Assembly: GCA_018818785.1 (NCBI GenBank)
Contig: JAHIRF010000002.1
Location: 135,874-199,873, forward strand
Direction of reading: 5' to 3'
DNA length: 64,000 nucleotides
Source of the DNA: Thermoplasmatota archaeon
GTDB lineage: Archaea > Thermoplasmatota > Thermoplasmata > UBA10834
Of this stretch, positions 1-58,087 are shown in pieces; position 1 is the first letter of the stretch; every line of letters begins with the position of its first letter. The translations under genes and the position numbers were made by a program. Below the pieces are notes generated by a model, which was not told where the DNA came from, did not search any database, and worked only from the letters and a program-made list of their open reading frames with translations.

Positions 1-3000
1 AAATGACCTTATCAGATCAGATCTCGTCGACAGGGGTGCCATGTTCCATGAAGGGCAGATCACGCACAGATACGGGCACTGCTGGCGATGTAAGAGGCCG
101 ATCATATACAGGATAACCGAGCAATGGTTCCTGAAGGTCACCGACATAAAGGCGCAGCTCGAAGCTGCCAACGACCAGATCAAGTGGTATCCCGACTGGG
201 CCGGCTCATCCAGGGAGAAGGACTGGATAGCCAATGCAAGGGACTGGTGCATCAGCAGGCAGAGGTACTGGGGGACACCCGTTCCCATCTGGAGATGCGC
301 ATGCGGCAACGTCAAGGTGATCTCATCGATTGAGGAGCTCAAGTCTGGCCGAGGATACGTGGACGGTATGGATGTGCATCGCCCATGGATCGATAATATC
401 ACATTCGATTGCGAGAAGTGCGGGCAGACGATGACCAGGACACCAGATGTTCTGGATGTCTGGTTCGACGCGGGAGTCTGTTCTTGGGCGTCCTTGGGAT
501 ACCCAGCGAGCAAGGATGACTTCGATAAATGGTGGCCAAGCGAGTGGGTCACCGAGGCTCACGATCAGACCCGAGGCTGGTTCTACTCTCAGCTAGTGAC
601 GGGAGTTGTTGCATTCGGCAGATCACCATACAATTCCGTTCTCATGCACGGATGGGCACTTACGCCCCAGGGAGAGGCCATGTCTAAGAGCGAAGGCACG
701 GCAATAGACCCAATAGGTGCGGTGAACACACTTGGCGCCGACGCGCTGAGACTATATCTCCTGAAGGCCAACGCCCCTTGGGAGGACATTCTCTTCCAGA
801 CTGAGGGCGTCAAGGCGGCTAACAGGATCATAAACATCTTCTGGAACGTCTACAAATTCGCAGTCCTGTACATGTCGATAGATAAATTCGACGAATCACA
901 ATGGCGGACCCAATCTCTCAGAGAGACCTTCAGGCCAGAGGATCGATGGATGCTCTCCCGCATCGAGACGATGAAGAGGGACTTCACGCAGGCAATGGAG
1001 ATATATGAGGTGCATCGAGCGGCGAGGATACTCGAGGACTTCATAGTGACGGATCTCTCGCGATGGTACGTCAAGGTAGTGAGGGATAGACTCTGGAAGG
1101 AGGGGGATGACAGGGACAAGACCGCTGCGTTCAAAGTGCTGCACGAGGCGCTGTCAACATCTGCGACCATGCTCGCTCCAATAGCACCTCATGTTTGCGA
1201 AGCAATCTACACCAACCTCAACTCAAGGCCTGAGAGCGTGCACATGGTTCAATGGCCGACTCATGATCCAAGTTGGATCGATGAGGGTCTGGAAGAGGGC
1301 ATGGACCTCGTAAGGGAGATATCCGAGGTGATCGCCCGCATGCGCCAGGAGGCGAATGTGAACCTCCGATGGCCCTTGAAGCGCATCATCATCAAACCGC
1401 AGAATGATGATGTCGCTGATGCGCTGATACAGCTCAAGAATGTCATCCTGTCCCAGAACAACATCAAGGATATGCATGTCGTGCCGGTAGGTGAGGAATG
1501 GGACGAGATGGTCCTGAGCGTGGTTCCGAACCCCAACGCCATAGGGAAGGTCTATCGCCAGTGGTCGAGCAAGATCGCGGTTCTTCTCAAGAACAGGCCT
1601 GCGAAGTCGATCAAGGCCGGTATCGACAAGGGCGAGTACTCACTCGGTATCGAGGGCCAACTCGTCAAGATCCTTCCGAACATGGTGTCCTTCACTTCGA
1701 CGCTCCCACCAGATGTGGTCAGTGACGAGTTCTCCAAGGGTCTGTTCTATGTCGACCTCGAGGAGACCCCCGCGCTCGAAGCGGAGGGATTCGCGAGAGA
1801 GACCATCAGACGGATACAGCAGATGAGAAAGGACATGGGCCTCAACGTAGAGGAATTCATAAAGATAGAGATAGAGTGTTCGCGCAAGATCGAGAACGCC
1901 ATAGAGACCTGGAAGGACCATATCTCAAGGGAGACCAGGGCCAAACGGCTCGAGGTCGCCAATTCTCCAAGAGGGGAATACATCGTCGAGTGGAATGTCT
2001 CGAATGAACAACTCCTGATAGGCATAACCTCACTTAAGATGAAGAAGGCATTGGACGAGCTCGGAGCGATTCCTGGCATGACCGCCGAAAAGGCGCTCAA
2101 GATATTCGACCATGGCTACACTACGGTTGACGCCCTCAAGAACGCATCGATCGAAGACATAGCCTCGATCGATGGCATCACGAACGTCGATGGTAAGAAG
2201 ATCCATGACCATCTAAATGGGGTCGTCCACACAGAACCAGCTCCTGCAGCACCGCCAGCCCCGAGTGTCGCGCAGGCTACTACGGACGTAGCAGCTGCCC
2301 CTCCCCCGAACGAATTCATCGAGCGATTGAAAGCCGTTCCCGGCATGACAGCATCGCTGGCGGACGGATTGTACAGGGCAGGTTTCGTGTCCGAGGAATC
2401 CATCAGGAACGCTTCTGTGGACGATATGATGAAGGTGGACGGAATAAGTCTCGATGTCGCAACCCAGTTATTGGACGCATCCATGAACCCTTCCGTTTCT
2501 GACGGAGCGGCTCAAGTAGCACCCAAGAAGATAGAGCCAGGCGTGAGCGATCTCGAAAGGTCGTTTTCATACCTTGTCGAAGAGGACAGGCCCGAGACAT
2601 CGTACAGTCTGTTCGTAAGCGCGCTCAATAAGGGCATGAAGGGATATTGTGTCACGAGGAATTATCCCGCGAAGATACGCACCAAATTCGACCTCAAGGA
2701 TACGCCATTGGTTTGGCTCTCTAATGTAGGTCGCGAGAACGCCATCAGACCGAAGGACCTCGAGAAGCTGAGCGTCTCCCTGGAACAATTCCTCTCGCAA
2801 CCGGGCGGGGGAATCGTGCTCCTGGATGGTCTGGAGTATCTGATCACCAATAACAATTTCATAACCGTGTTGAGGCTGATACAATCCCTGAGGGATCAGG
2901 TCGCGATCAATCAATCCATACTCCTCATGGCTGTGAACAAGTCGACACTTGAGAGCCATCAGCTCAATCTGCTGGAGCGAGAGGTGGACTACACCATAAC

Positions 3001-3007
3001 TGGATGA
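1..3007 (+). CDS. ileS: Isoleucyl-tRNA synthetase, C-terminal ~2/3 (5' end lies outside the window). An in-frame C-terminal extension of about 330 aa follows: 2-4 helix-hairpin-helix motifs, a Pro/Ala-rich linker, then a DUF835-like domain (~2550..3007).
   Basis: Class I aaRS motifs are present (HCWRCKRPII, PDVLDVWFDAG, KMSKS as 'AMSKSEG'), followed by an anticodon-binding region. After about aa 665 come HhH-like repeats ('GAIPGMTAEKALKIFDHGYTTVDALKNASIEDIASIDGI', 'VPGMTASLADGLYRAGF...VDGISLDVATQLL'). The final ~150 aa aligns with two other proteins in this window (the 14495..15208 and 51324..53171 products). No stop codon interrupts the frame. Confidence 0.8.
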   Translation, partial: NDLIRSDLVDRGAMFHEGQITHRYGHCWRCKRPIIYRITEQWFLKVTDIKAQLEAANDQIKWYPDWAGSSREKDWIANARDWCISRQRYWGTPVPIWRCACGNVKVISSIEELKSGRGYVDGMDVHRPWIDNITFDCEKCGQTMTRTPDVLDVWFDAGVCSWASLGYPASKDDFDKWWPSEWVTEAHDQTRGWFYSQLVTGVVAFGRSPYNSVLMHGWALTPQGEAMSKSEGTAIDPIGAVNTLGADALRLYLLKANAPWEDILFQTEGVKAANRIINIFWNVYKFAVLYMSIDKFDESQWRTQSLRETFRPEDRWMLSRIETMKRDFTQAMEIYEVHRAARILEDFIVTDLSRWYVKVVRDRLWKEGDDRDKTAAFKVLHEALSTSATMLAPIAPHVCEAIYTNLNSRPESVHMVQWPTHDPSWIDEGLEEGMDLVREISEVIARMRQEANVNLRWPLKRIIIKPQNDDVADALIQLKNVILSQNNIKDMHVVPVGEEWDEMVLSVVPNPNAIGKVYRQWSSKIAVLLKNRPAKSIKAGIDKGEYSLGIEGQLVKILPNMVSFTSTLPPDVVSDEFSKGLFYVDLEETPALEAEGFARETIRRIQQMRKDMGLNVEEFIKIEIECSRKIENAIETWKDHISRETRAKRLEVANSPRGEYIVEWNVSNEQLLIGITSLKMKKALDELGAIPGMTAEKALKIFDHGYTTVDALKNASIEDIASIDGITNVDGKKIHDHLNGVVHTEPAPAAPPAPSVAQATTDVAAAPPPNEFIERLKAVPGMTASLADGLYRAGFVSEESIRNASVDDMMKVDGISLDVATQLLDASMNPSVSDGAAQVAPKKIEPGVSDLERSFSYLVEEDRPETSYSLFVSALNKGMKGYCVTRNYPAKIRTKFDLKDTPLVWLSNVGRENAIRPKDLEKLSVSLEQFLSQPGGGIVLLDGLEYLITNNNFITVLRLIQSLRDQVAINQSILLMAVNKSTLESHQLNLLEREVDYTITG

Positions 3008-12327: not shown

Positions 12328-12747
12328 TCATCGTGTCTTCCGACTCATCTCCTGGCCTTGGGCAGACCAGTGTAGGAAGGATGGTTCATCTTCCAGATCG
12401 ACCGTTTCTGAGCTAGATTCGCCGTTGGCTTTGACGAATACGCGCAGTCTCCCGTCCTGAAGGACCACCTCGGCGGATTCGACCGTCGAACGGTACATAG
12501 CCACGGACTTGCCACCGATGGACACTGCCTTGTCCTCTTCTCGGATCATGCCCGCCTGTTTGAGCAGACGTATCCGTCTGTAGCAGGCCGCGATGGGTAT
12601 CCCTAGCGCTTCGCTGATCTCCGTGGCGTTCATGGCCTGCACCTCCGTCATGGAGAGTATCTCCGATGAATGTTCGTCGAGCATGAGTTTGAAGGAATCC
12701 ATGGCATTCATCGAGTCACGACCTATATCCTCGACAGACCTGACCAT
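12328..12747 (-). CDS. Winged-helix (ArsR/TrmB-like) transcriptional regulator. The 18522..18893 product is a paralog.
   Basis: 'EISEALGIPIAACYRRIRLLKQAGMI' HTH. Shares the motif 'IPIAACYRRI' with the 18522..18893 product. Last gene of the KaiC-like operon. Confidence 0.55.
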   Translation of the reverse strand: MVRSVEDIGRDSMNAMDSFKLMLDEHSSEILSMTEVQAMNATEISEALGIPIAACYRRIRLLKQAGMIREEDKAVSIGGKSVAMYRSTVESAEVVLQDGRLRVFVKANGESSSETVDLEDEPSFLHWSAQGQEMSRKTR

Positions 12748-13670
12748 TCCTGGTCGAAGTTGCTGCCTCCAATACCTTGTAGATGGACAGATGAGTGTTC
12801 GAAACCCGGCTTGTTGGCGGCCCTTTGGAGATAATTCACATCACCAGTCTCTATATCGAGATGAAGGAACACGACATTGTCCACTTTGAGGACTGGCAGT
12901 ATCTTGCCCGCATCCATGCCTTCGGGGTTCTCCACCATCTGGCCACACGCGGAACACTTGCCTGAATCGAGAGGTCCATGCTGTCCACAGAACGGACAGT
13001 CTACCTCGTCGAGTGGGTTGTTGTCGAACTCCATGTCTGTGAATATTCCTACGATACCGGTGTCTCCCAGCTCCAACCGGGTGCCGCATATCGGACACCT
13101 GTCAGTGTTCAATTCAACGACAGTACCACAATGTGTGCACTCGAAAACGAAGTCGGGACCACCTTTGTCGTCCTGCAGATAATGCAGGATGCCCAACTCG
13201 GCATCGAAGTGTATCAGGGGATTGCCGTCCTTCGTGACGAAATCCTCGGGTTGGAATTCTTTGAGATTCTCAGCGCGCAGGAGTTCCTCCATCTCAGCCT
13301 CGTCTATTCCTTGTATGTACAATGCGCGGCACTTCGGACACCTCTCTGCGCCATCGGGCATCTGGGTGTTGCACTCGAAGCATTGGAATGTCTTCATGAC
13401 GGGTCTTGGAGGAGCGTTAGAAGATCTAGCGACAAACTGGTCTAGAACTTGAGCGGTGATCTGGATATCATCGCGTGTAATCTTGGGCGCCTTCAGGGCA
13501 TCAGCCATATGTTTCCTGCTCATAGGCTTCGCCTTGACAACCCGTCTTAGATGCCTCTTCTCTTCCTTGACAGTGATGAAGGTACCTTTCTTTCCTAATC
13601 TCCTGGCCTTCGCTGGGGCATTCGCATCCTCGTCGACCCCTTCATCAGTCTGTTGGCGTTTCGCTTTCAT
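12723..13670 (-). CDS. Four-zinc-ribbon protein, function unknown
   Basis: 315 aa with four CxxC...CxxC pairs (CFEC..CPKC; CTHC..CPIC; CPFC..CSAC). Basic N-terminus. Confidence 0.5.
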   Translation of the reverse strand: MKAKRQQTDEGVDEDANAPAKARRLGKKGTFITVKEEKRHLRRVVKAKPMSRKHMADALKAPKITRDDIQITAQVLDQFVARSSNAPPRPVMKTFQCFECNTQMPDGAERCPKCRALYIQGIDEAEMEELLRAENLKEFQPEDFVTKDGNPLIHFDAELGILHYLQDDKGGPDFVFECTHCGTVVELNTDRCPICGTRLELGDTGIVGIFTDMEFDNNPLDEVDCPFCGQHGPLDSGKCSACGQMVENPEGMDAGKILPVLKVDNVVFLHLDIETGDVNYLQRAANKPGFEHSSVHLQGIGGSNFDQEWSGLSRI

Positions 13671-13805
13671 ATCCCAGATCCTCTCGTCAGATGTTTCGAA
13701 TCGTTTCTCTCAGCTCAACGATTGGATAGGATTACTTATACCGGTGTCGACACGGTAATCAGCGCTGATAACACCAGACCCTGCCAGTCTTCAGGCGTCG
13801 GAGGC

Positions 13806-14498
13806 TCAGAATCGCGCCTTCAGCACTATCACGCCGTCTTTGCGTGTTATATCAACCGATTGCTTCCCAGTCAGATGGTTGGTGCCTCTCATCTTGAGCA
13901 CCTCTATGTATTTGCGCCTGGCATCTCCTTCGTCGGAGAGCATCAGAAGGATGACCCCATCTACCGCGTACGATATCTCCGCGGGGTACAGTTCACCCGG
14001 ATGTACTTCACCTGTCAGAATGGTGACGGCCTGCCAGTTCTTCAATCGGGTCGCGAGATCGAACGCGAATACCCTGTAGTCATCTTTCATCATCGTACCC
14101 ACCACCGTGATTGGATCGATGACGATCCTGTTGGGCATCACCTCGGCGATCTTCTTGTCTATGATGTCGAGTATCTCTTCACCACTCCTCTTTCGGAGTT
14201 CGAGGCCGAGGTCGAAGTAGACTATCTCCTTGCCGTAGAACTCACGCTTGGCGAACTCGAACTGAGTGGCATATCTCAGCATCCACTGCGCAGGCTCGCT
14301 GAGTGTGCTTATGTAGAGGCACTGCTCGCCATTCTCAGCACCTGAGAACATGAATTTCTGGGCGAACGTGGTCTTGCCAGATCCCGCACCGCCAGCTACG
14401 AGGACAACCGATGGATAGGGGAAGCCTCCTTCGATCATATCGTCCAGGCCAGGAATGCCACTGCTCAGTCTCGGGAAGCCATTCTCGATCATATTCAA
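13806..14498 (-). CDS. KaiC-like / RecA-superfamily ATPase (single KaiC domain)
   Basis: Walker A 'VLVAGGAGSGKTTFAQKF', KaiC-like 'CLYISTLSEP', Walker B 'RIVIDPITVV'. 230 aa. Confidence 0.8.
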   Translation of the reverse strand: MNMIENGFPRLSSGIPGLDDMIEGGFPYPSVVLVAGGAGSGKTTFAQKFMFSGAENGEQCLYISTLSEPAQWMLRYATQFEFAKREFYGKEIVYFDLGLELRKRSGEEILDIIDKKIAEVMPNRIVIDPITVVGTMMKDDYRVFAFDLATRLKNWQAVTILTGEVHPGELYPAEISYAVDGVILLMLSDEGDARRKYIEVLKMRGTNHLTGKQSVDITRKDGVIVLKARF

Positions 14499-15208
14499 AT
14501 CACTCCTTTCGAAATATCGCTCTTCGCCAGTCCTCCGGGACTGCCCTGGAAGACATGTCTTATCTGCATATCAGGTGACAGTTCGATCGTCTTCGTCGCG
14601 ATTTCAGACACAAACTCGAAGAGGACCGGATGAACCTCCTTGTCCATCGCCAAGACGGTGATCACTCTCTGGGAGGCTCTGTTCCTCAGCACCGCGAGAT
14701 ACTTCGTGAAGAATGTCTCCACGCTCGCCATCGTGTTATAGGTCAGCAGGGTGGATACATTGTCCATCACGACGAACTCGACCATTGAGAACTCTGATGA
14801 GATATCAGGGTTCGAGCCATTCGAACCTGCTATGAACTCCGGTAGAACCTCGATGTGAAACGGTCCTTTCTGGAATTCAGCAGCGACCGCACCGCCTTTC
14901 GTATCTGACGATTGGACCGATATGGCATCAACGAAAGACAGATTGGTCTGATCGATGCCATGGAGCTGGAGGAGATGTGAGACATATTGGTGGGGTCTAT
15001 CGATCGTTATCATGATGCCTTTCTTCTGTTTTCGCTCCAGGAGCGCTTTCAGAAGAACCAAGTTCAATCGGACCAGATTCGTATACTTCACCGATATGAG
15101 ATACAGCCCGCTCTCTCCTTCAGTCTGAATCTCTGAGCTGATGATCTTGACTAGCTGGAGATCCTTCTCATTCACTCGTCGCACACCCACTACACGACTA
15201 TCACTCAA
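14495..15208 (-). CDS. Stand-alone DUF835-like domain protein. The gene overlaps the KaiC-like ATPase start by 4 nt.
   Basis: 'GIMITIDRPHQYVSHLL...NLSFVDAIS' and 'VEFVVMDNVSTLLTYNTMASVETFFTKYLAVLRNRASQRVITVLAMDKEV' align collinearly with the C-terminal domains of the IleRS extension and of the 51324..53171 product. No Walker A motif. Confidence 0.5.
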   Translation of the reverse strand: MSDSRVVGVRRVNEKDLQLVKIISSEIQTEGESGLYLISVKYTNLVRLNLVLLKALLERKQKKGIMITIDRPHQYVSHLLQLHGIDQTNLSFVDAISVQSSDTKGGAVAAEFQKGPFHIEVLPEFIAGSNGSNPDISSEFSMVEFVVMDNVSTLLTYNTMASVETFFTKYLAVLRNRASQRVITVLAMDKEVHPVLFEFVSEIATKTIELSPDMQIRHVFQGSPGGLAKSDISKGVI

Positions 15209-50754: not shown

Positions 50755-51318
50755 ATGCTTGTGGCAGCCGTGAGAACTGTAATCGGCATCACGGGAGCAT
50801 CGGGAACGACCTACGGCATAAGGCTTCTGAAAGCGCTCCCCGGCCATAAGACCGTCATCTTGTCCGAGGACGGGATGCATGTGGCCAGGATCGAGATGAA
50901 CCTCGATAGGATGGACATAGAAGCTCTGGCAGATTGCCATAATGACAACTCAGATCTGGCAGCTCCAGTTGCATCGGGATCGAGCAGATTCGATAATGTC
51001 ATCATAGCCCCTTGCAGCGTATCAACCATGTCTAAGATCGCCTGCGGGATATCGGACACGTTGATAACGAGAGTGGCATCGATCGCATTGAAGGAGAGGC
51101 GGAAGCTCGTCCTGCTCGTGCGCGAAACCCCTCTGTCGACGATACATCTGGAGAATATGCATAGGCTCTCAGCAGCCGGTGCCGTCATCATGCCCGCAAG
51201 TCCAGCGTTCTATCCGAACCCAGATACGGTCGATGACATGGTCGACTTCCTCGTCGGGAGAATCCTCGACGTACTCGACATAGAGAACTCATTATACAAG
51301 CGCTGGGAAGGAGAGTAG
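50755..51318 (+). CDS. ubiX: UbiX-family flavin prenyltransferase (prFMN synthase)
   Basis: 'VIGITGASGTTYGIRLL', 'IIAPCSVSTMSKIACG'. In archaea this partners the UbiD-type anhydromevalonate-phosphate decarboxylase of the mevalonate pathway. Confidence 0.78.
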   Translation: MLVAAVRTVIGITGASGTTYGIRLLKALPGHKTVILSEDGMHVARIEMNLDRMDIEALADCHNDNSDLAAPVASGSSRFDNVIIAPCSVSTMSKIACGISDTLITRVASIALKERRKLVLLVRETPLSTIHLENMHRLSAAGAVIMPASPAFYPNPDTVDDMVDFLVGRILDVLDIENSLYKRWEGE

Positions 51319-51323
51319 GTCCG

Positions 51324-53171
51324 TCACAGGTAATCGTGTACCTCGTCGAACTCGTCGCTGATGATCTTGTACTCATCCTCGGGAATGCGTTCCTTGTTCA
51401 CTGGGACGATGACCGATGCGCCGTGAATCGCGGATAGGTCGTTCACCCGCTTCACGAATGCCAGCGCCGCTTCGAACCCGTTTTCAGATAGTATGACCTC
51501 AAGGCCCTCTATCAGCAGTCCTGAGCGCTTCGTCGTCATCAGGAAAGTGGAGACGGTCTCCATCGCGTCCCCGTCCAGGTCGTGGATGTTCACGCTGTCT
51601 ATGTCGGTGGTGCTGTCGCACATGCATTTCACGTCGAAATCATCGCCGAGGTCGTGTTGCTCGCGCACCTTACCTGGGAATTCGTTCGTCATGATGAGCG
51701 CGGGTCGTCCAGAAAGTCCCATGGCGCGTATCATGCTGTATCCTCTTCGTGAATCGATGTCCACGATGATGTAGCTTCTACCGCCCTTCACCTCCTCCTG
51801 GAATGCACCACATCTAGTGCACTGAAGAGTATAGGGGTCTTCTTCGCCGGTTGACAGGAAGGTCTCATCACATGCCTTGCACTGGATCGACCGCGTGTGC
51901 TCTGGGAACAACACCTCGCCGCATTGCGGGCACGCCTGCGCCTTCTCCGCACAATCCATGTGCATCTGATGTCCGCAGATGCATTCGTAGAGTTCCTTCT
52001 CCGCATCAATCGGACGCATGCACATCTGACATCTCAGCATGTGGGAATCGTCATCCTGCTTCACGACCGCCTGCTTCACGGGGATGACGAGATCATCCGG
52101 TATCTCTAACGTCGCACGGTCATAGAGCGTCTTGGAGAACACGTAGCTTGCGAAGATGAACCCGGGCACCAGGAAATACATGTAGGAACCGTAAATCATC
52201 GTGCCCCTGCTGGCGAATGAGAACATGAATGGGAGCACATAGAACAGGGAAAGGATTCCGACCAGCGCCCATGTGAACCATCTCACAATCGGGAGCTGCT
52301 TGGCTGAACCTCTGAAACGCTTCGGATGCTGCATCAGATACTTGCTGAACCTCTTCGCCGATATCCTCAATATCAGTATGCATCCGAACAGGAGCACTAT
52401 GAAGGATATCTGGCTGTTCTCATAGATGCTGAAAGGCTCATAGGTCATGGTCTCTTGGACGGCCGACTCGCCCGGAAGAACCTCGCCCTCAAAGGTATAC
52501 CAGATGATCGTACCGATGGGGGTCCTTAGCTCGCTGATCTTTCCTGCAACCAGATCAGGGGATGTGAAGCTGCTCATGCCGAACATCATCACCCGGTCCT
52601 TCACTATCAATGTGCCATCGAATGTGAAGCCGGTGACAGTGTTGAGTGCACCAGCGAAGGTCTCCAACGGAACCTCCGATGGCCTCATGAGCTTCGTGAC
52701 GCTCTCGCCTATGCAATTGAACCTTATGCTGATGGACATCACATCGGTAGAGGAATATCTCGTGTCGACTATGCCCGATGTGGCATGTCTTAATTCGTAA
52801 TCGGTCATGTTCTCGAAGTCGGTGGGACTATTGATCGTCATGCCCCAATGCTGCCTGCCGGCCAGGGCATCCGTGAACGCGACAAGAAACGCTCTGGCCT
52901 CGGACACTTCGAGATACTGGTTATCGTTCGTGTCGAAATTTGTATAATATCCCCTGCTTTCGAATATGGATTGACGCAATTCGATGGCAGGGACGCCTTC
53001 GAATGTCAGCTGCACCTTGCCATCGCCTTCCATCGTGTCCAGGACGGTGAACGACATCTTCGATTCGATAATCATCACGTTCCCATCGTGGGCGGATGTT
53101 CCCATGGGAACTGAGACGATGAGTGCCATGCACAAGAAGAGGACCAACATTGCTGTCCTGAAACGCATCAT
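51324..53171 (-). CDS. Multidomain membrane protein: signal peptide, extracellular domain, ~4 TM, RING-H2-like zinc finger and further zinc ribbons, then a C-terminal DUF835-like domain
   Basis: 'CQMCMRPIDAEKELYECICGHQMHMDCAEKAQACPQCGE' (C3H2C3-like). The C-terminal 'RSGLLIEGLEVILSENGFEAALAFVKRVNDLSAIHGASVIVPVNKE' aligns with the IleRS extension and the 14495..15208 product. Confidence 0.55.
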   Translation of the reverse strand: MMRFRTAMLVLFLCMALIVSVPMGTSAHDGNVMIIESKMSFTVLDTMEGDGKVQLTFEGVPAIELRQSIFESRGYYTNFDTNDNQYLEVSEARAFLVAFTDALAGRQHWGMTINSPTDFENMTDYELRHATSGIVDTRYSSTDVMSISIRFNCIGESVTKLMRPSEVPLETFAGALNTVTGFTFDGTLIVKDRVMMFGMSSFTSPDLVAGKISELRTPIGTIIWYTFEGEVLPGESAVQETMTYEPFSIYENSQISFIVLLFGCILILRISAKRFSKYLMQHPKRFRGSAKQLPIVRWFTWALVGILSLFYVLPFMFSFASRGTMIYGSYMYFLVPGFIFASYVFSKTLYDRATLEIPDDLVIPVKQAVVKQDDDSHMLRCQMCMRPIDAEKELYECICGHQMHMDCAEKAQACPQCGEVLFPEHTRSIQCKACDETFLSTGEEDPYTLQCTRCGAFQEEVKGGRSYIIVDIDSRRGYSMIRAMGLSGRPALIMTNEFPGKVREQHDLGDDFDVKCMCDSTTDIDSVNIHDLDGDAMETVSTFLMTTKRSGLLIEGLEVILSENGFEAALAFVKRVNDLSAIHGASVIVPVNKERIPEDEYKIISDEFDEVHDYL

Positions 53172-53330: not shown

Positions 53331-56213
53331 CTATTCGGCATATACTGCGGGCCGACCAGGCTTCGCAAACCTGCTACGTCCTTTCGGGTCAACCAACTCG
53401 GGGTCGTCGACCGAACGAACTTCGACCGCACATCCGAACTGCTCGCCCAGGAAACCGCTGGCGGCTTTGAGTACCTCGAGCTCGTCGAATTTTGCAGACA
53501 GCATGACTCGGTCATGTTCGGCAGCCCTCGAAACCTCCTGTGCGACATCCTTTGCGAAAGCAGGTATTGCCTTCTTCATCTCAGGAGTCTTCGCATCGGG
53601 CATGGCAGCCTTTATCAATGCGGACACATCCACCTTTCCTTTCGGTTGACCGAGTGCAGCTGATAGCATCTCGATCTTCCACGATGGAGCCACCATGATG
53701 GAGATCTTCGTAGGGCTCATGCTCGTGACCTTCAGGATCTCAGATACATCCTGCATGAGATTCTGGATGAGCTTCTCCTTGGCCTCCTCCGATATCACTT
53801 CATCGTTCCTGCTTCCATCGGAGAGTCGGTGCAGAGATACGAACGGCTTCTGGCCTATGTGTTCCCATAGTTCCTCGGACAGATGAGGTGTGATCGGAGC
53901 CATGAGCGGTATCCAGGTTCTCAGCGCATCCATCAGGACGCTCCTGCTCTTTCCGCCTCGTCTGAGGTACCATTTGATATCCTGAGATATCTCGAAATAC
54001 ACTTCGTTGGAGTACGAGCGGATATCGTAGTCTGCCATATGCTCGTGGAGCTTGGCCAGGCGCATGTTCAACCTCGCCAAGAGCCACGCGTCCATTCCGG
54101 TGCTCTCCTCGGTCCCTATCCTCAGCAGATCATCCACAAGGATCCAGGTCTTCTCCAACCGGTCGCTGTAGCTCTCGACCTTCTCGTCATCCCAAGCAAC
54201 ATCGACGAAGAGAGAGGATATGTGCGCATAGAAGAGCCGCATCGCATCGACCCCGAACTTCTCTGCAGCATCGGGGATCGGCTGCGCGCCACCTTTCGAT
54301 TTGGATATCTTGCTACCTGTAGATGTGATGTACCAGTTGACCATGATCCCGTTCGGGCGGTGCTCCGGCCTCAAGATCGCCACATGGTTCATCAGGAAGA
54401 CCGGGAAGTGAACGGTCATGTGCTCCTTGCCCCCGAGGTTGATGTCGAGAGGATACCAGTACTCGAACTCGGCCCTCATCATGCCGAGGGTCTCCACGGA
54501 TACGCCCGATTCTGCCTCGACGACCGTCACATCCCCTTCACCAAGGATCACATAATCGAAGAACTTCTCAGTCATGCCATCGGGTTTTATGATGCCTTCG
54601 TTGGCGTATCTGGACAGGACATAATAGACAGGATACAACGTGCTATCGGCGATCGCCTCGATTATCCATCTCTGGTCGAACGGGAATCTCGTACCGAGCC
54701 AATTGCCAAGGCGGACACATGCTCTCTCCCTGTACCATTCTATGACGTTCTGTATGTTGTCGAAGTACTCCTTGGGCAGGATCTTCATCGTCCTTGCGTG
54801 CTCTTTCGACCGCTCCTTCAGGCCAGGGTTTGCATAATCGATGAACCATTGGTCGGGTATCTTCCGTACGAGGACCTTCTCACCGCATCGGCAGATGACC
54901 TCCTCAGACAGGTCGCGCATGATCGCCGCTTGGCTGCCAGAGAGCATCTGCGCCCTTATCGCATCCTTAGCGGCCTCGACAGGCTTTCCTGAGAACTCTC
55001 CACATGAAGAGTTCATGACACCCCTGTGGAAGCCGGCCTTGTAGACCTCCTTGGTCGCCTCATCCAATTTGGGATCGGCCATAGTCGAAATGCCCATCCT
55101 CTCGCATATCTCGACCGCGGGCATCGGCCCCCAGCCTGGTGTGTCTATGATCGCGATCGGCTTCGCACCCTCTATCATCTCATCCGTCAGATTGTACCGG
55201 GCCCTCATATCGGAGTTGCGCTTGAGCTCGACCAGACCGATCCAATCGACCGGTGCATCCGATGGGACACTCATGACGAGCCCGGTGCCAATGTTCGGAT
55301 CGCACAGATTCGACGGGAACACAGGGATCATCTTGCCCGTGAATGGCGCCTTGCACCTCTTCCCCATCAACGCGCTGCCGTCCGTCGAACCCAGCACCTT
55401 GACCGAATCCATCTGCAGCGCGAGCTTCTCGGCGGCGGGTCTGCTGACCACCCATGTCTCGCCATCAACCTCTGCATCGACGTATTCCACATCAGGGTTC
55501 ACCCAGAAGTTCGTGAGGCCGAACACGGTCTCAGGCCTCAGGGTCGCTGCAACCAGATTCCTGCCGTCATCGAGATCGAACTTCAGCAAGGTGTATTCCA
55601 GCACCTCGGCGGTCCCGCCCTTCTGAATGTCGGTCTCGGAGGCATCGATCGCAACCGGCCCATGCTCAAGACAGGCCGGTGCGAAATATGGTTTCTGAAT
55701 GAGCAGTCCATGTGCCTTCAGCTTGCGCATCTGCCATTCTATGAACCTGGAATAATCCGGATATGTCGTGCATGTGAACCTGCGCCAATCAGACATGAAG
55801 CCGAACCGCTTCCAATAATCATTCACATAGACCTCGTTGAAGAACCTGACGACACCATCTGCGTTCGCCAGAGATTCGATCGTCTCGGATGTGCACCCAT
55901 TGGCTTCCAGTATTCCGATAGTTGCTGGATCCCCTCGCTCCACCTTACGAGCGAAACTGATAGCGCCGTTGCCAGTAGAATGCGTCCCCACAGGGAACAG
56001 GACATTGTGTCCAGTCATCATCTTGTACCTGACGATCGCGTCGGTGATGGTGTATCCCCTCATATGCCCGACATGGAGATACCCTGTGACACCAGGGTAT
56101 GCGAATATCATGAAGAATTTCTTCTTTCCAGGCACGGGATTCGATTCGTTTATCCTGGCCTTGTACCAGGCGGTCCTCCATTTGGCTTCCATCGCCGAGA
56201 AATCCAGTGTCAT
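53331..56213 (-). CDS. leuS: Leucyl-tRNA synthetase (archaeal type)
   Basis: 'HVGHMRGY' HIGH motif, 'KISKSKG' KMSKS motif, CP1 editing domain. The long ORF extends to 56438, but the start is likely the Met at 'MTLDFSAMEAKW'. Confidence 0.9.
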   Translation of the reverse strand: MTLDFSAMEAKWRTAWYKARINESNPVPGKKKFFMIFAYPGVTGYLHVGHMRGYTITDAIVRYKMMTGHNVLFPVGTHSTGNGAISFARKVERGDPATIGILEANGCTSETIESLANADGVVRFFNEVYVNDYWKRFGFMSDWRRFTCTTYPDYSRFIEWQMRKLKAHGLLIQKPYFAPACLEHGPVAIDASETDIQKGGTAEVLEYTLLKFDLDDGRNLVAATLRPETVFGLTNFWVNPDVEYVDAEVDGETWVVSRPAAEKLALQMDSVKVLGSTDGSALMGKRCKAPFTGKMIPVFPSNLCDPNIGTGLVMSVPSDAPVDWIGLVELKRNSDMRARYNLTDEMIEGAKPIAIIDTPGWGPMPAVEICERMGISTMADPKLDEATKEVYKAGFHRGVMNSSCGEFSGKPVEAAKDAIRAQMLSGSQAAIMRDLSEEVICRCGEKVLVRKIPDQWFIDYANPGLKERSKEHARTMKILPKEYFDNIQNVIEWYRERACVRLGNWLGTRFPFDQRWIIEAIADSTLYPVYYVLSRYANEGIIKPDGMTEKFFDYVILGEGDVTVVEAESGVSVETLGMMRAEFEYWYPLDINLGGKEHMTVHFPVFLMNHVAILRPEHRPNGIMVNWYITSTGSKISKSKGGAQPIPDAAEKFGVDAMRLFYAHISSLFVDVAWDDEKVESYSDRLEKTWILVDDLLRIGTEESTGMDAWLLARLNMRLAKLHEHMADYDIRSYSNEVYFEISQDIKWYLRRGGKSRSVLMDALRTWIPLMAPITPHLSEELWEHIGQKPFVSLHRLSDGSRNDEVISEEAKEKLIQNLMQDVSEILKVTSMSPTKISIMVAPSWKIEMLSAALGQPKGKVDVSALIKAAMPDAKTPEMKKAIPAFAKDVAQEVSRAAEHDRVMLSAKFDELEVLKAASGFLGEQFGCAVEVRSVDDPELVDPKGRSRFAKPGRPAVYAE

Positions 56214-56280
56214 CTTGGTCAGCCAGCAATATGACGGAAGGGTTGATACCAATAAAAGGTTTCTTGAGAAGCCGATATCC

Positions 56281-56577
56281 TCAGGCTCCGCGCCTCTTGC
56301 TGTGCAAGAAGAACGCAGCTGGACCCGCAGTCGCCGACACCACTCCCACGAGGCTGAGCACAAGCCCGATGAACAATGGCAGGGAGGATGAGCTGAAGAC
56401 CTCATGGGATTCGGATGTCGATCCATCGCTACCCGCACTGACCGTTTCGAGTGAGGATAGAGAGTATACTGTTATGACGAAACCCATGACGAACAATGCT
56501 ATGCCGACCCCCACAACGATAGGTGTTCCCTTCAGCTTGAAGGGGCGCTTGCGGTCGCTATCATCATTTGATGCCAT
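56281..56577 (-). CDS. Small 2-TM membrane protein
   Basis: 98-aa ORF. Confidence 0.3.
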   Translation of the reverse strand: MASNDDSDRKRPFKLKGTPIVVGVGIALFVMGFVITVYSLSSLETVSAGSDGSTSESHEVFSSSSLPLFIGLVLSLVGVVSATAGPAAFFLHSKRRGA

Positions 56578-57298: not shown

Positions 57299-58087
57299 AT
57301 GACGGCGGAAGAAGGGAACAGCACGGAAGAGATAATCAATTCATTGGGAGCGAGTCTGGGCGAACCGACGATAGCAGTTGTTGGCTGTGGAGGAGCGGGC
57401 TCGAACATCGTACATCGCATGTACTGGAAGCACAACAGGGTCGAGACCGTTGCCATCAACACGGATGAGGAGCACTTGAGAAAGACGGATGCCCACAGGA
57501 AAGTGTTGATAGGCAAGAACGTGTCCTTCGGCAAGGACGCCGGCGGTTACCCCGAGATCGGTGAGCACTGCGCAGAGAAGGCTCGCGAGGTCATACGAGA
57601 GGCGATAAAGGGCTACGACATCGTGTTCGTCGTCGCAGGAATGGGAGGCGGCACCGGTACGGGCGTAGCACCCATAGTGGCCAATGTCGCCAAGGAGATG
57701 AACGCGATCTCATTCGCTGTGCCGATACTTCCATTCGAGGTCGAGGGCGCCAATCGCATGAAGACTGCGGTGGATGGGCTCGCCAAGCTCAAGGATAATG
57801 CGAGCTTCACAATCGTGCTCGACAACAATAAGTTGATCGGCCTGGGAGACTCTCTGTCAGTCTCAGACGCTATGGGAGTCATCGACCGGAGCGTCATGAA
57901 GATCGTGGATTCCGTTTCGCAGCAGACCAGCTCGTATGTGAGCTCGCTCATGGAAGAGATATCAGGATTCACGGATACGGATGCATCGGAAGAAATGCCG
58001 CAGACCATGCCTTCAACGATGGAAGGACCGATGATACATGCGGATCTGAACCCGATGCTCAACAATTTCGGGCCTGGCTTCTTCTGA
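57299..58087 (+). CDS. FtsZ/tubulin-superfamily GTPase-domain protein. It is C-terminally truncated, with no T7-loop domain, and has an acidic tail.
   Basis: 'GCGGAGSN' (T1), 'GMGGGTGTG' tubulin signature (T4), and 'FTIVLDNNKL' match the FtsZ N-domain. The protein ends about 60 aa later, with no 'N-x-D-F-A-D' T7 motif. Confidence 0.65.
   Translation: MTAEEGNSTEEIINSLGASLGEPTIAVVGCGGAGSNIVHRMYWKHNRVETVAINTDEEHLRKTDAHRKVLIGKNVSFGKDAGGYPEIGEHCAEKAREVIREAIKGYDIVFVVAGMGGGTGTGVAPIVANVAKEMNAISFAVPILPFEVEGANRMKTAVDGLAKLKDNASFTIVLDNNKLIGLGDSLSVSDAMGVIDRSVMKIVDSVSQQTSSYVSSLMEEISGFTDTDASEEMPQTMPSTMEGPMIHADLNPMLNNFGPGFF

Follow-up and report, generated by a model that had tools for sequence, protein, structure and literature searches.

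Archaeal signal transduction is poorly understood. KaiC-like ATPases and their inactive relatives have been proposed as hubs of signalling, a view for which nearly all the evidence comes from genome comparisons. The closest described counterparts of the protein analysed here are archaeal response regulators of the REC-DUF835 type, in which DUF835, also called iKaiC, is catalogued as the output domain (PMC5847659). These regulators occur in Thermoplasmata and share with our protein the same Pfam domain, a KaiC/RecA-like fold, the lack of Walker A and a C-terminal DUF835 as presumed signalling output. Solved structures of the fold include ArlH/FlaH and the CI domain of KaiC, which bind ATP via a Walker A loop. 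Makarova et al. 2017 (mBio) is reportedly a further source on iKaiC and REC-DUF835 regulators. With respect to the zinc finger, E3 ligases such as RNF13, ZNRF3/RNF43 and the PA-TM-RING proteins follow the same order as our protein, with a signal peptide, an ectodomain, a membrane span and a cytosolic RING-type finger. Prokaryotic RING fingers, including the Prok-RING_1 family, are said to have been described by Burroughs, Iyer and Aravind in 2011 (Mol Biosyst).

Here we analysed a gene in a 64,000-nucleotide stretch of a Thermoplasmatota archaeon contig (the window), whose features are collected in Table 1. The open reading frame was confirmed as a coding gene, with about 115 full-length relatives at 37–95% identity. 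The family occupies 40 species-level loci, all in uncultured Thermoplasmata species, with one copy per genome. Its members appear to combine four parts in a single polypeptide: outside, an input domain with a candidate ligand site, then a relay through the membrane that is conserved, an adaptor resembling a RING finger, and an inactive KaiC domain as output. Mean pairwise identity rises from the ectodomain, the least conserved part (0.38), through the TM region (0.50), the RING-like finger (0.56) and DUF835 (0.64) to the zinc ribbon (0.71), the most conserved. In distant relatives the order of ectodomain, TM region, RING and DUF835 is preserved; their ectodomain varies, for example by MAM-like inserts, while Prok-RING_1 and DUF835 are retained. 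We found no description in the searchable literature of a RING-like finger, zinc ribbon and DUF835 fused behind a receptor ectodomain.

Table 1 Features of the gene and of related or adjacent genes in the window.
Feature	Position in window	Strand	Basis
Whole gene, 615 aa + stop codon	51324..53171	-	ORF list
Signal peptide, aa 1-27	53091..53171	-	Hydropathy; family cleavage-site pattern
Extracellular domain, aa 28-252, predicted alpha/beta sandwich, no recognised family	52416..53090	-	AF2, Pfam, Foldseek
EF-hand-like 12-residue loop, D80-T-N-D-N-Q-Y-L-E-V-S-E91	52899..52934	-	Column conservation, PROSITE pattern
Membrane region, aa 253-356	52104..52415	-	Hydropathy, charge, AF2 helices
Juxtamembrane segment (IPEExVIEVKQA), then flexible acidic linker, aa 357-379	52035..52103	-	Conservation; pLDDT
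RING-like binuclear zinc finger, C4HC3	51912..52034	-	Ligand conservation, Pfam, PDB sequence matches, AF2
C4 zinc ribbon, C431-x2-C434-x16-C451-x2-C454	51777..51911	-	Cys conservation, AF2 strands
DUF835 domain, aa 466-615, KaiC/RecA-like fold	51327..51776	-	Pfam PF05763, Foldseek
Second DUF835 domain, fused in frame to IleRS + HhH motifs	2573..3004	+	Pfam, 120 bits; phmmer
KaiC-like ATPase	13806..14498		PF06745, 145 bits
DZR protein	12723..13670		
237-aa protein adjoining the KaiC-like ATPase	14495..15208	-	
UbiX-family flavin prenyltransferase, convergent neighbour	50755..51318	+	NCBIfam NF004685, 224 bits

The N-terminus reads MMRFR, followed by a hydrophobic core and then TSA and H on either side of the predicted cleavage point. 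Across the family, position -3 is Ala, Val, Thr, Ser or Gly and position -1 is Ala, Ser or Gly (104 of 105 members in each case), and position +1 is Gln in 100 of 105, which together with hydropathy supports the signal peptide of the original prediction. That prediction also held an ectodomain, which stands, and about four TM helices. The membrane region instead consists of three predicted TM helices, a basic cytoplasmic loop (residues 270–293) and a short amphipathic helix. AF2 places helices at 253–281, 284–289, 294–316 and 330–355; the first, third and fourth of these are the membrane spans, to which only the cleaved signal peptide can be added. The loop between TM1 and TM2 carries seven Lys/Arg and no Asp/Glu, indicating that it lies inside. 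N-x-S/T sequons occur at 1.16 per 100 residues in the ectodomain versus 0.06 in the cytoplasmic part, an enrichment of about 20-fold on the outside. Invariant or near-invariant residues of the membrane region include R269, P271, H282, P283, R287, P314 and Y350. In the juxtamembrane segment, I357 and A368 are invariant and E364, K366 and Q367 are kept in at least 90% of members; the AF2 pLDDT falls below 50 over residues 364–377. The protein is thus predicted to be exported via a cleavable signal peptide, with a glycosylatable 225-residue ectodomain outside and three membrane crossings, and the model places the RING-like C4HC3 finger, the C4 zinc ribbon and a KaiC/RecA-fold DUF835 lacking Walker A in the cytoplasm.

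The ectodomain is modelled with confidence (pLDDT 94.8, pTM 0.91) and appears to add a domain with no detectable structural neighbour. It had no match in Pfam, and Foldseek searches of PDB and BFVD gave no convincing structural match (best TM-score 0.38, rmsd above 10 Å). Matches of the ectodomain profile to OspA (E 0.001) were judged to be compositional, arising from strands rich in Thr, Ser and Lys.

Within the ectodomain lies a putative cation-binding site. Like the canonical EF-hand of the calmodulin type (PROSITE PS00018), it is a loop of 12 residues, D-x-N-x-N-Q-x-L-E-x-x-E, flanked by two helices (residues 60–71 and 89–103 in the AF2 model), with conserved positions 1, 3, 5, 8, 9 and 12, a strand at positions 7–8 and a helix from position 10. 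Candidate oxygen ligands at positions 1, 3, 5, 9 and 12 are D80, N82, N84, E88 and E91. Among 116 members, position 1 is Asp in 104, position 5 is Asn or Asp in 110, position 8 is hydrophobic in 115 and position 12 is Glu in 111. Without its last position, PS00018 matches this site in 51 of the 116 members versus 48 of 5800 shuffles (0.8%); the strict pattern matches only four, and position 13 is where it breaks down in the window protein and in most members. Further departures from the canonical EF-hand are a Gln in place of Gly at position 6 and the setting of the loop, which is single, unpaired, extracellular and embedded in a beta-sandwich domain. Pfam EF-hand matches are weak (only 7 of 27 members, E ~1e-3), and calmodulin-type matches among PDB sequences have E-values of 0.002–0.03. 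In a library of 1.84 billion sequences, multi-stretch matches to short unannotated proteins were consistent with EF-hand repeats.

In the cytoplasmic part, a Cys/His cluster spans residues 381–417, with the spacing C381-x2-C384-x12-C397-x-C399-x4-H404-x2-C407-x6-C414-P-x-C417. The family pattern, C-x2-C-x12-C-x(1-2)-C-x4-H-x2-C-x6-C-x2-C, is compatible with the cross-brace of a RING/PHD binuclear treble clef, and no ligand is lost from more than one of the 116 members except C397 (Cys in 109, Ser in 6). AF2 predicts a hairpin (394–396/402–404) and a helix (405–410). This cluster had been described as a C3H2C3-like RING motif, and the literal C-x-H-x2-H-x2-C pattern of RING-H2 fingers is indeed present in the window protein via C399 and H401. 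However, His at 401 is found only in the closest relatives, the family having mostly Leu, Ala, Thr, Met or Phe there, so that the conserved ligand set is C4HC3. Nor did the HMM search bear out the RING-H2 label, with zf-RING_2 (PF13639) at 17–20 bits against a cut-off of 27.3 and zf-C3H2C3 (PF17122) at 11–16 bits against 27. From its conserved ligands, the finger of these archaea is predicted to be a C4HC3 motif of the binuclear-treble-clef type, not of the RING-H2 type.

Across members, the zinc module draws Prok-RING_1, C1 and PHD matches. Prok-RING_1 (PF14446), which has the same eight-ligand binuclear pattern, is the top Pfam family (E below 1 in 41 of 41 members, below 1e-4 in 28 of 41, best 1.8e-9). 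It exceeds the cut-off of 29.1 bits in the distant relative P0248 (33 bits) and is a precomputed match for P0034 and P0078; the window protein itself scores only 8.6 bits as a whole and 13.6 as an isolated module, below that cut-off. C1_2/DC1 (PF03107) does pass its cut-off in the window protein (28 versus 26 bits), but only over profile positions 13–48. An invariant Ala stands 13 residues before C381, and the first His specific to C1 is therefore absent; the last of the eight ligands, like that of RING and PHD fingers, is a C-terminal Cys. RING-type fingers are uncommon in archaea, as originally remarked, but they are already described in the Prok-RING families of Pfam.

The extra zinc ribbon of the original prediction is well supported. 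Of its four Cys residues, C451 and C454 are invariant and neither of the other two is missing from more than one of the 116 members; they form two CxxC knuckles with AF2 strands at 426–430 and 437–441. Many zinc-ribbon families in Pfam match it below threshold. Finger and ribbon together hold twelve conserved zinc ligands.

The C-terminal DUF835 assignment also stood, with PF05763 at 44.6 bits in the full protein and 48.7 in the domain alone (gathering cut-off 33.1) and a precomputed match in 114 of 115 relatives. ArlH/FlaH and KaiC CI (PDB 4yds, 4tlc), PH0250 and PH0284 are the closest solved folds (E 2.6e-5 to 6e-4, TM-score 0.47–0.56 on the target chain); FlaH 4yds is the best Foldseek match (E 2.6e-5, TMt 0.50), and KaiC CII, RecA and RAD51 were also matched. 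The fold matches have a probability of 1.00 and TM-scores of 0.45–0.56 on single-domain targets. Sequence similarity to these structures is undetectable: we found no relative of the domain among PDB sequences and no match of the protein to the KaiC-family ATPase model PF06745 at E≤10. Where Walker A would be expected, strand 466–470 is followed by DIDSRRG (DxDPRNA in the family) instead of GxxxxGK[ST], with no glycine-rich loop. On sequence and model, the domain is predicted to have a KaiC/RecA fold without Walker A and to be ATPase-dead. In contrast to REC-DUF835 regulators, where the input is a phospho-receiver, the input here appears to be a receptor that sits in the membrane and carries an extracellular domain, and the RING-like finger and ribbon are inserted before DUF835. 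The domain is also divergent, with 20–27% identity to stand-alone DUF835 proteins.

We found only two DUF835 matches among the ORFs of the window, where the original prediction had counted this domain as a third copy: one here and one at the tail of the IleRS ORF 2..3007(+). The two match each other by phmmer (E 1.9e-7), and the IleRS-HhH-DUF835 fusion recurs in relatives. The 237-residue protein adjoining the KaiC-like ATPase was considered as the third copy and rejected, since phmmer, family-profile hmmsearch, single-sequence hhalign and Pfam at E≤10 were all non-significant. Profile-profile hhalign with 31 homologues was marginal (E 0.062, probability 0.9%). The claim that the output domain is the same module as that beside the KaiC-like ATPase had been tied to a statistical match between the copies, and at this E-value we dropped it. 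The 237-residue protein has a sub-threshold KaiC match (E 0.026), and it and DUF835 may both fall within one broad class of inactive KaiC domains.

We favour, with about an even chance of being right, the view that the protein is a one-component receptor or transducer of the archaeal KaiC-type signalling network, its output being protein–protein contact via the RING-like/ribbon/inactive-KaiC module. The original picture of a transmembrane sensor with zinc fingers and a DUF835 output keeps its architecture here, and loses the RING-H2 label and the module shared with the KaiC neighbour. Ca2+ or another divalent cation would bind the ectodomain at the EF-hand-like loop, either as the signal itself or as a structural requirement for another ligand, and the conserved three-helix bundle and juxtamembrane segment could relay the change. 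The output would be a regulated protein–protein contact rather than catalysis, in which the inactive KaiC-like domain may bind to KaiC-like ATPases or to other DUF835 proteins of the cell, or assemble jointly with them, the three zinc sites serving as a putative adaptor surface. A fast-evolving ectodomain that acquires inserts is typical of ligand-facing sensor domains. It is distinctly doubtful, however, that the protein is a receptor for extracellular calcium or divalent cations, in which occupancy of the loop, within an ectodomain of a fold not seen before, would be relayed through the three-helix bundle and the module would nucleate mixed rings with other DUF835 proteins, including IleRS-HhH-DUF835, thereby linking the external ion to KaiC-type ATPases and perhaps even to translation. 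Compact, single-copy and well modelled, the family could give experiments a place to start: its ectodomain is defined, and it offers three zinc sites and a single DUF835 domain.

Rather unlikely is a role as a structural tether or scaffold, which would anchor a cytoplasmic DUF835/KaiC-like ring, possibly including IleRS-HhH-DUF835, to the membrane or envelope while a Ca2+-stabilised ectodomain contacts the cell surface layer. Such a role would suit a single-copy gene with a fixed place among housekeeping genes in 40 of 40 species and a C-terminal domain of the KaiC/RecA fold, whose domains typically oligomerise. Extracellular EF-hand-like loops are often structural, and the loop seen here is compatible with this. 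The fusion of the second DUF835 in the same genome to IleRS and the class-I aaRS genes beside several family members also fit a tether, although the aaRS adjacency is absent in the distant relatives P0240, P0241 and P0239. An ectodomain that evolves faster than the rest and gains inserts in relatives speaks against it, as does the use of DUF835 as a response-regulator output (PMC5847659).

It is very unlikely that the protein is a membrane-bound RING E3-type ligase, whose finger would recruit a charged carrier of a ubiquitin-like protein and direct substrate modification, like RNF13 and ZNRF3. Both of these transmembrane ligases are among the RING-H2 E3s that the zinc-module profile matches best in PDB sequences (E ~1e-3, range 0.001–0.02), the layout from signal peptide to RING is held in common, and two features of the E2 surface are present: Val, Ile or Leu after the first Cys (position 383, 101 of 116) and Pro after the seventh ligand (P415, 115 of 116). 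However, the central helix is four residues shorter than in RING-H2 fingers, with the alignments gapped there, and has no aromatic E2-contact residue (408 and 411 are Ala). Gly418 occupies the basic linchpin position after the last Cys, and the RING Pfam models remain below cut-off. The C4HC3 rather than C3H2C3 ligands, the three TM helices, the additional ribbon and the inactive KaiC domain also set the protein apart from the eukaryotic transmembrane ligases. No E2, E1 or ubiquitin-like gene was present in the 10 neighbourhoods examined, and E2 enzymes are not commonly known from Thermoplasmata. An oligomeric ligand-gated channel-like assembly, in which a beta-rich ectodomain would sit on a helical membrane bundle and a KaiC-like ring would do the gating from the cytoplasmic side, is extremely improbable. 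GLIC, nicotinic and GABA-A pentameric channels are among the top Foldseek matches whether the full-length model or the ectodomain is the query (E 2e-4 to 5e-3), but TM-scores of 0.11–0.25 and rmsd of 14–24 Å (0.16–0.25 and 13–17 Å for the ectodomain) mean that there is no real superposition, and the resemblance to Cys-loop receptors was ruled out on these values. Four helices of the ectodomain also have no counterpart in the Cys-loop fold, and the TM helices number three, not four.

The conserved neighbours of the gene are housekeeping genes (LeuRS, UbiX and an S19e cluster), and the context therefore gives little functional guidance. Within the window we found no co-transcribed partner gene. 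The UbiX neighbour is present in 40 of 40 loci and in the distant relatives L045, L048 and L050; it was considered as a signalling partner and set aside as a bona fide flavin prenyltransferase whose convergent orientation implies no operon. Adjacency to LeuRS is kept in the 40-species clade and in P0244 and was rejected as a functional link, since more remote relatives lack it; we treat it as synteny. Two distant relatives have a gene for a KaiC-like ATPase at a distance of two genes, and zinc-ribbon proteins accompany KaiC/DUF835 elsewhere in the window and in relatives.

The 615-aa protein encoded by the minus-strand ORF 51324-53171 is best explained as a one-component membrane receptor, a reading to which we give about an even chance. 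Input would come through the ectodomain, which is variable and glycosylated and probably contains a divalent-cation site, and a conserved helix bundle and juxtamembrane segment would act as the relay. The output would be non-catalytic, with a RING-like finger, a zinc ribbon, and an inactive KaiC domain making protein-protein contacts in a KaiC-type network. The original prediction was largely right in what it observed and partly right in how it interpreted it. The literature searched contains no description of the exact domain combination; the individual components, and inactive-KaiC outputs as a general idea, are already known.

Features of the 615-aa protein (aa) and of the window (nt, strand in brackets)
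Feature	Position	Description	Basis
EF-hand-like loop	aa 80-91	D80-T-N-D-N-Q-Y-L-E-V-S-E91, between model helices 60-71 and 89-103	profile match to PDB sequences
Loop conservation (of 116 members)	loop positions 1, 3, 5, 6, 8, 9, 12	D 104; N/S/D 84; N/D 110; Q 85; L/I/M/V 115; D/E/N/S 106; E 111	
Three TM helices	aa 253-281, 294-316, 330-355		hydropathy, AlphaFold2 model
Short amphipathic helix	aa 284-289		hydropathy, AlphaFold2 model
RING-like finger	first eight ligands	C381-x2-C384-x12-C397-x-C399-x4-H404-x2-C407-x6-C414-P-x-C417	
Zinc ribbon	last four ligands	C431-x2-C434-x16-C451-x2-C454	
IleRS-HhH-DUF835	2-3007 (+), runs off window start	tRNA-synt_1, Anticodon_1, DUF5915, two HhH, and DUF835 in one frame	
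Three-gene run	12723-15208 (-)	237-aa orphan (14495-15208), KaiC-like ATPase (13806-14498), 315-aa double-zinc-ribbon protein	
UbiX-family gene	50755-51318 (+)	bona fide flavin prenyltransferase	NCBIfam
LeuRS	53331-56438 (-)	directly upstream of the receptor gene, same strand	
Short FtsZ/tubulin-family protein	57299-58087 (+)	about 262 aa, GTPase domain only	

Searching 5.8 billion proteins yielded 115 clusters of relatives (37-95% identity), almost all full length at about 560-623 aa, from MAGs of uncultured Thermoplasmata, Thermoplasmatota, or 'Methanomassiliicoccus sp.'; those with names are labeled 'DUF835 domain-containing protein'. When one genome per species was scanned, 40 species carried the gene, each at a single locus, and all of them are uncultured Thermoplasmata-type MAGs. 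Given these full-length relatives and the single locus per species, the gene is real, present in one copy, and inherited vertically within one archaeal clade. An ectodomain profile run against a 1.84-billion-protein library retrieved 84 representatives at E<1e-3, and 12 of the 20 scanned have a C-terminal DUF835. Among the distant relatives, P0248 carries Prok-RING_1 at 33 bits, over the cut-off, and P0240 and P0241 carry it below threshold. The ectodomain-TM-RING-like-DUF835 plan therefore predates the 115-cluster family and extends beyond it. In five distant relatives (P0239, P0240, P0241, P0247, and P0249) the ectodomain is split by an InhA-like MAM/reelin-subrepeat-like insert, which brings most of them to 770-1230 aa with the C-terminal DUF835 kept; DUF835 was not detected in P0249.

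The predicted signal peptide was borne out as a Sec-type leader in which a basic start precedes a hydrophobic core. Cleavage-site positions -3 (A/V/T/S/G) and -1 (A/S/G) are each kept in 104 of 105 family sequences, and position +1 is Gln in 100 of 105 and His in the window protein. Hydropathy and the full-length AlphaFold2 model (mean pLDDT 87.1) place a TM region where about four helices had been proposed, but the count is three plus the cleaved leader. The TM1-TM2 loop has seven K/R and no acidic residues and is thus inside, which puts aa 28-252 outside the cell and aa 357-615 in the cytoplasm, in agreement with the proposed extracellular domain. N-x-S/T sequons support this topology independently: the ectodomain has 1.16 per 100 aa and the cytoplasmic part 0.06, with conserved columns at aa 118, 121, and 185.

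Modeled alone with 115 sequences (pLDDT 94.8, pTM 0.91), the ectodomain resembles a beta-sandwich and contains four helices. The Pfam search found no family for it, Foldseek found nothing in BFVD, and no PDB entry is a convincing structural neighbor; the best Foldseek matches (OST1, Cys-loop receptor ectodomains, and M1 aminopeptidase N-domains) have TM-scores of 0.16-0.38 and rmsd >10 Å. Unexpectedly, profile positions 39-74 match calmodulin-type EF-hands among PDB sequences (E 0.002-0.03). As in canonical EF-hands, the model has a strand at loop positions 7-8, and its exiting helix begins at position 10. The PROSITE EF-hand pattern minus its last position matches the aligned site in 51 of 116 members vs 48 of 5800 shuffled sequences, and no Pfam families other than EF-hand models recur among the ectodomains, although these match weakly. 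The profile also matches unannotated short proteins (217-340 aa) in the 1.84-billion-protein library, where the EF-hand-like segment falls in 4-7 repeated stretches, as it would in multi-EF-hand proteins. We infer that the loop binds metal.

Twelve Cys/His positions are conserved in the family. The finger had been read as C3H2C3-like and RING-H2-like, with C399 and H401 among its ligands, and in the window protein C-G-H-Q-M-H-M-D-C is indeed an exact fit to C-x-H-x2-H-x2-C. However, position 401 is mostly L/A/T/M/F across the family while C397 is kept (109 Cys and six Ser, some of the latter a shifted C-x2-C variant), so the pattern under selection is C4HC3, which is less close to RING-H2 than to PHD or RING-variant. 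The window protein scores 17 bits for zf-RING_2 (Pfam cut-off 27.3) and 28 bits for C1_2 (cut-off 26). The finger is not a RING-H2. It instead resembles Prok-RING_1-type fingers, whose cut-off the window protein misses (8.6 vs 29.1 bits) and relatives pass. Among 41 diverse members, Prok-RING_1 reaches E<1e-4 in 28 (best 1.8e-9), C1_2 in 18, C1_1 in 15, PHD in 4, and zf-RING_2 in 2. The modeled hairpin (394-396, 402-404) and the helix starting at H404-x2-C407 fit a treble clef, which would imply cross-brace zinc pairing. The proposed extra zinc ribbon is indeed a plain ribbon with four conserved Cys. In P0115, a 559-aa relative, the region between the first RING-like CxxC and the last ribbon CxxC is deleted, leaving C-x2-C-x14-C-x2-C and one potential zinc site; its source is a 2.8-kb contig, and the deletion may be an assembly artefact.

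A membrane RING E3-type ligase is improbable. RING-H2 ligases (RLIM, RNF38, Arkadia, NOT4, RNF13, and ZNRF3) top the PDB-sequence profile search with the zinc module, at E of about 1e-3 only and with a 4-residue gap needed in the central helix. Its set of E2-contact features is mixed: the finger has V/I/L after the first Cys and Pro after the seventh ligand, but it lacks an aromatic in its shortened helix and has Gly at the linchpin position. More serious, though still unlikely, is a structural tether that holds a DUF835/KaiC assembly at the membrane, and a channel-like oligomer is the least probable of all. Mean pairwise identity rises from the ectodomain (0.38) through the TM (0.50), RING (0.56), and DUF835 (0.64) regions to the ribbon, the most conserved stretch (0.71), a gradient that fits the receptor reading.

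The C-terminal DUF835 is over the Pfam cut-off. The best Foldseek PDB match of the full-length model is FlaH/ArlH (4yds; E 2.6e-5, probability 1.00), and KaiC CI and CII, PH0250, PH0284, RecA, and RAD51 also match at probability 1.00; no solved structure is related to this domain by sequence. The Walker A loop is absent, with strand 466-470 running into D-I-D-S-R-R-G. This agrees with 'DUF835 (iKaiC)', an inactivated KaiC-like domain described as an archaeal response-regulator output in Methanomicrobia and Thermoplasmata (PMC5847659). The domain had been counted as a third copy in the window, and two stand, the only other match among window ORFs being the tail of the IleRS ORF (phmmer E 1.9e-7, Pfam 120 bits). 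Many Thermoplasmata relatives likewise combine HhH and DUF835 with the C-terminal domain of IleRS (DUF5915), so the fusion is genuine rather than an assembly error. The supposed copy, encoded next to and upstream of the KaiC-like ATPase (PF06745, 145 bits; NCBIfam KaiC_arch_3), belongs to an orphan family with 89 relatives, no Pfam family, and a sub-threshold KaiC match. Its profile-profile comparison with DUF835 is suggestive to the eye and not significant (E 0.062, probability 0.9%), and the claim that the output is the module next to that ATPase is not supported. Through the 315-aa protein of the same run, zinc ribbons accompany KaiC-type domains at this locus; in the 615-aa protein the two are fused in one chain.

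The UbiX-family gene converges on the 3' end of the receptor gene in 40/40 loci, and also at distant-relative loci L045, L048, and L050; at L048 (7989-9252) and L050 (5284-6577) UbiX is immediately preceded by a co-directional KaiC-like ATPase gene. S19e follows UbiX in 39/40 loci, and wherever the genes of a locus were read, the remainder of the S19e/L39e/L31e/eIF6 cluster is there too. In about 22 loci LeuRS is the gene directly upstream, and in about 11 it lies one gene farther out. DUF835 receptor genes repeatedly have a class-I aminoacyl-tRNA synthetase gene as a neighbor (loci L001-L004, L046, and L047), and a divergent MetRS gene adjoins P0248; the adjacency is not kept at P0240, P0241, and P0239. 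We treat this conservation as synteny, and the recurrence of class-I synthetases near DUF835 is unexplained. The mechanical LeuRS ORF gives 1035 aa from GTG, ~75 aa longer than its 956-960-aa relatives, and translation probably begins at the Met of 'MTLDFSAMEAKW'. The short FtsZ-family protein scores 210 bits for NCBIfam ftsZ (cut-off 295) over profile positions 17-203 of 353, and relatives lie in the same place in L001 (3133-3924), L003 (1144-1935), and L047 (1509-2297).
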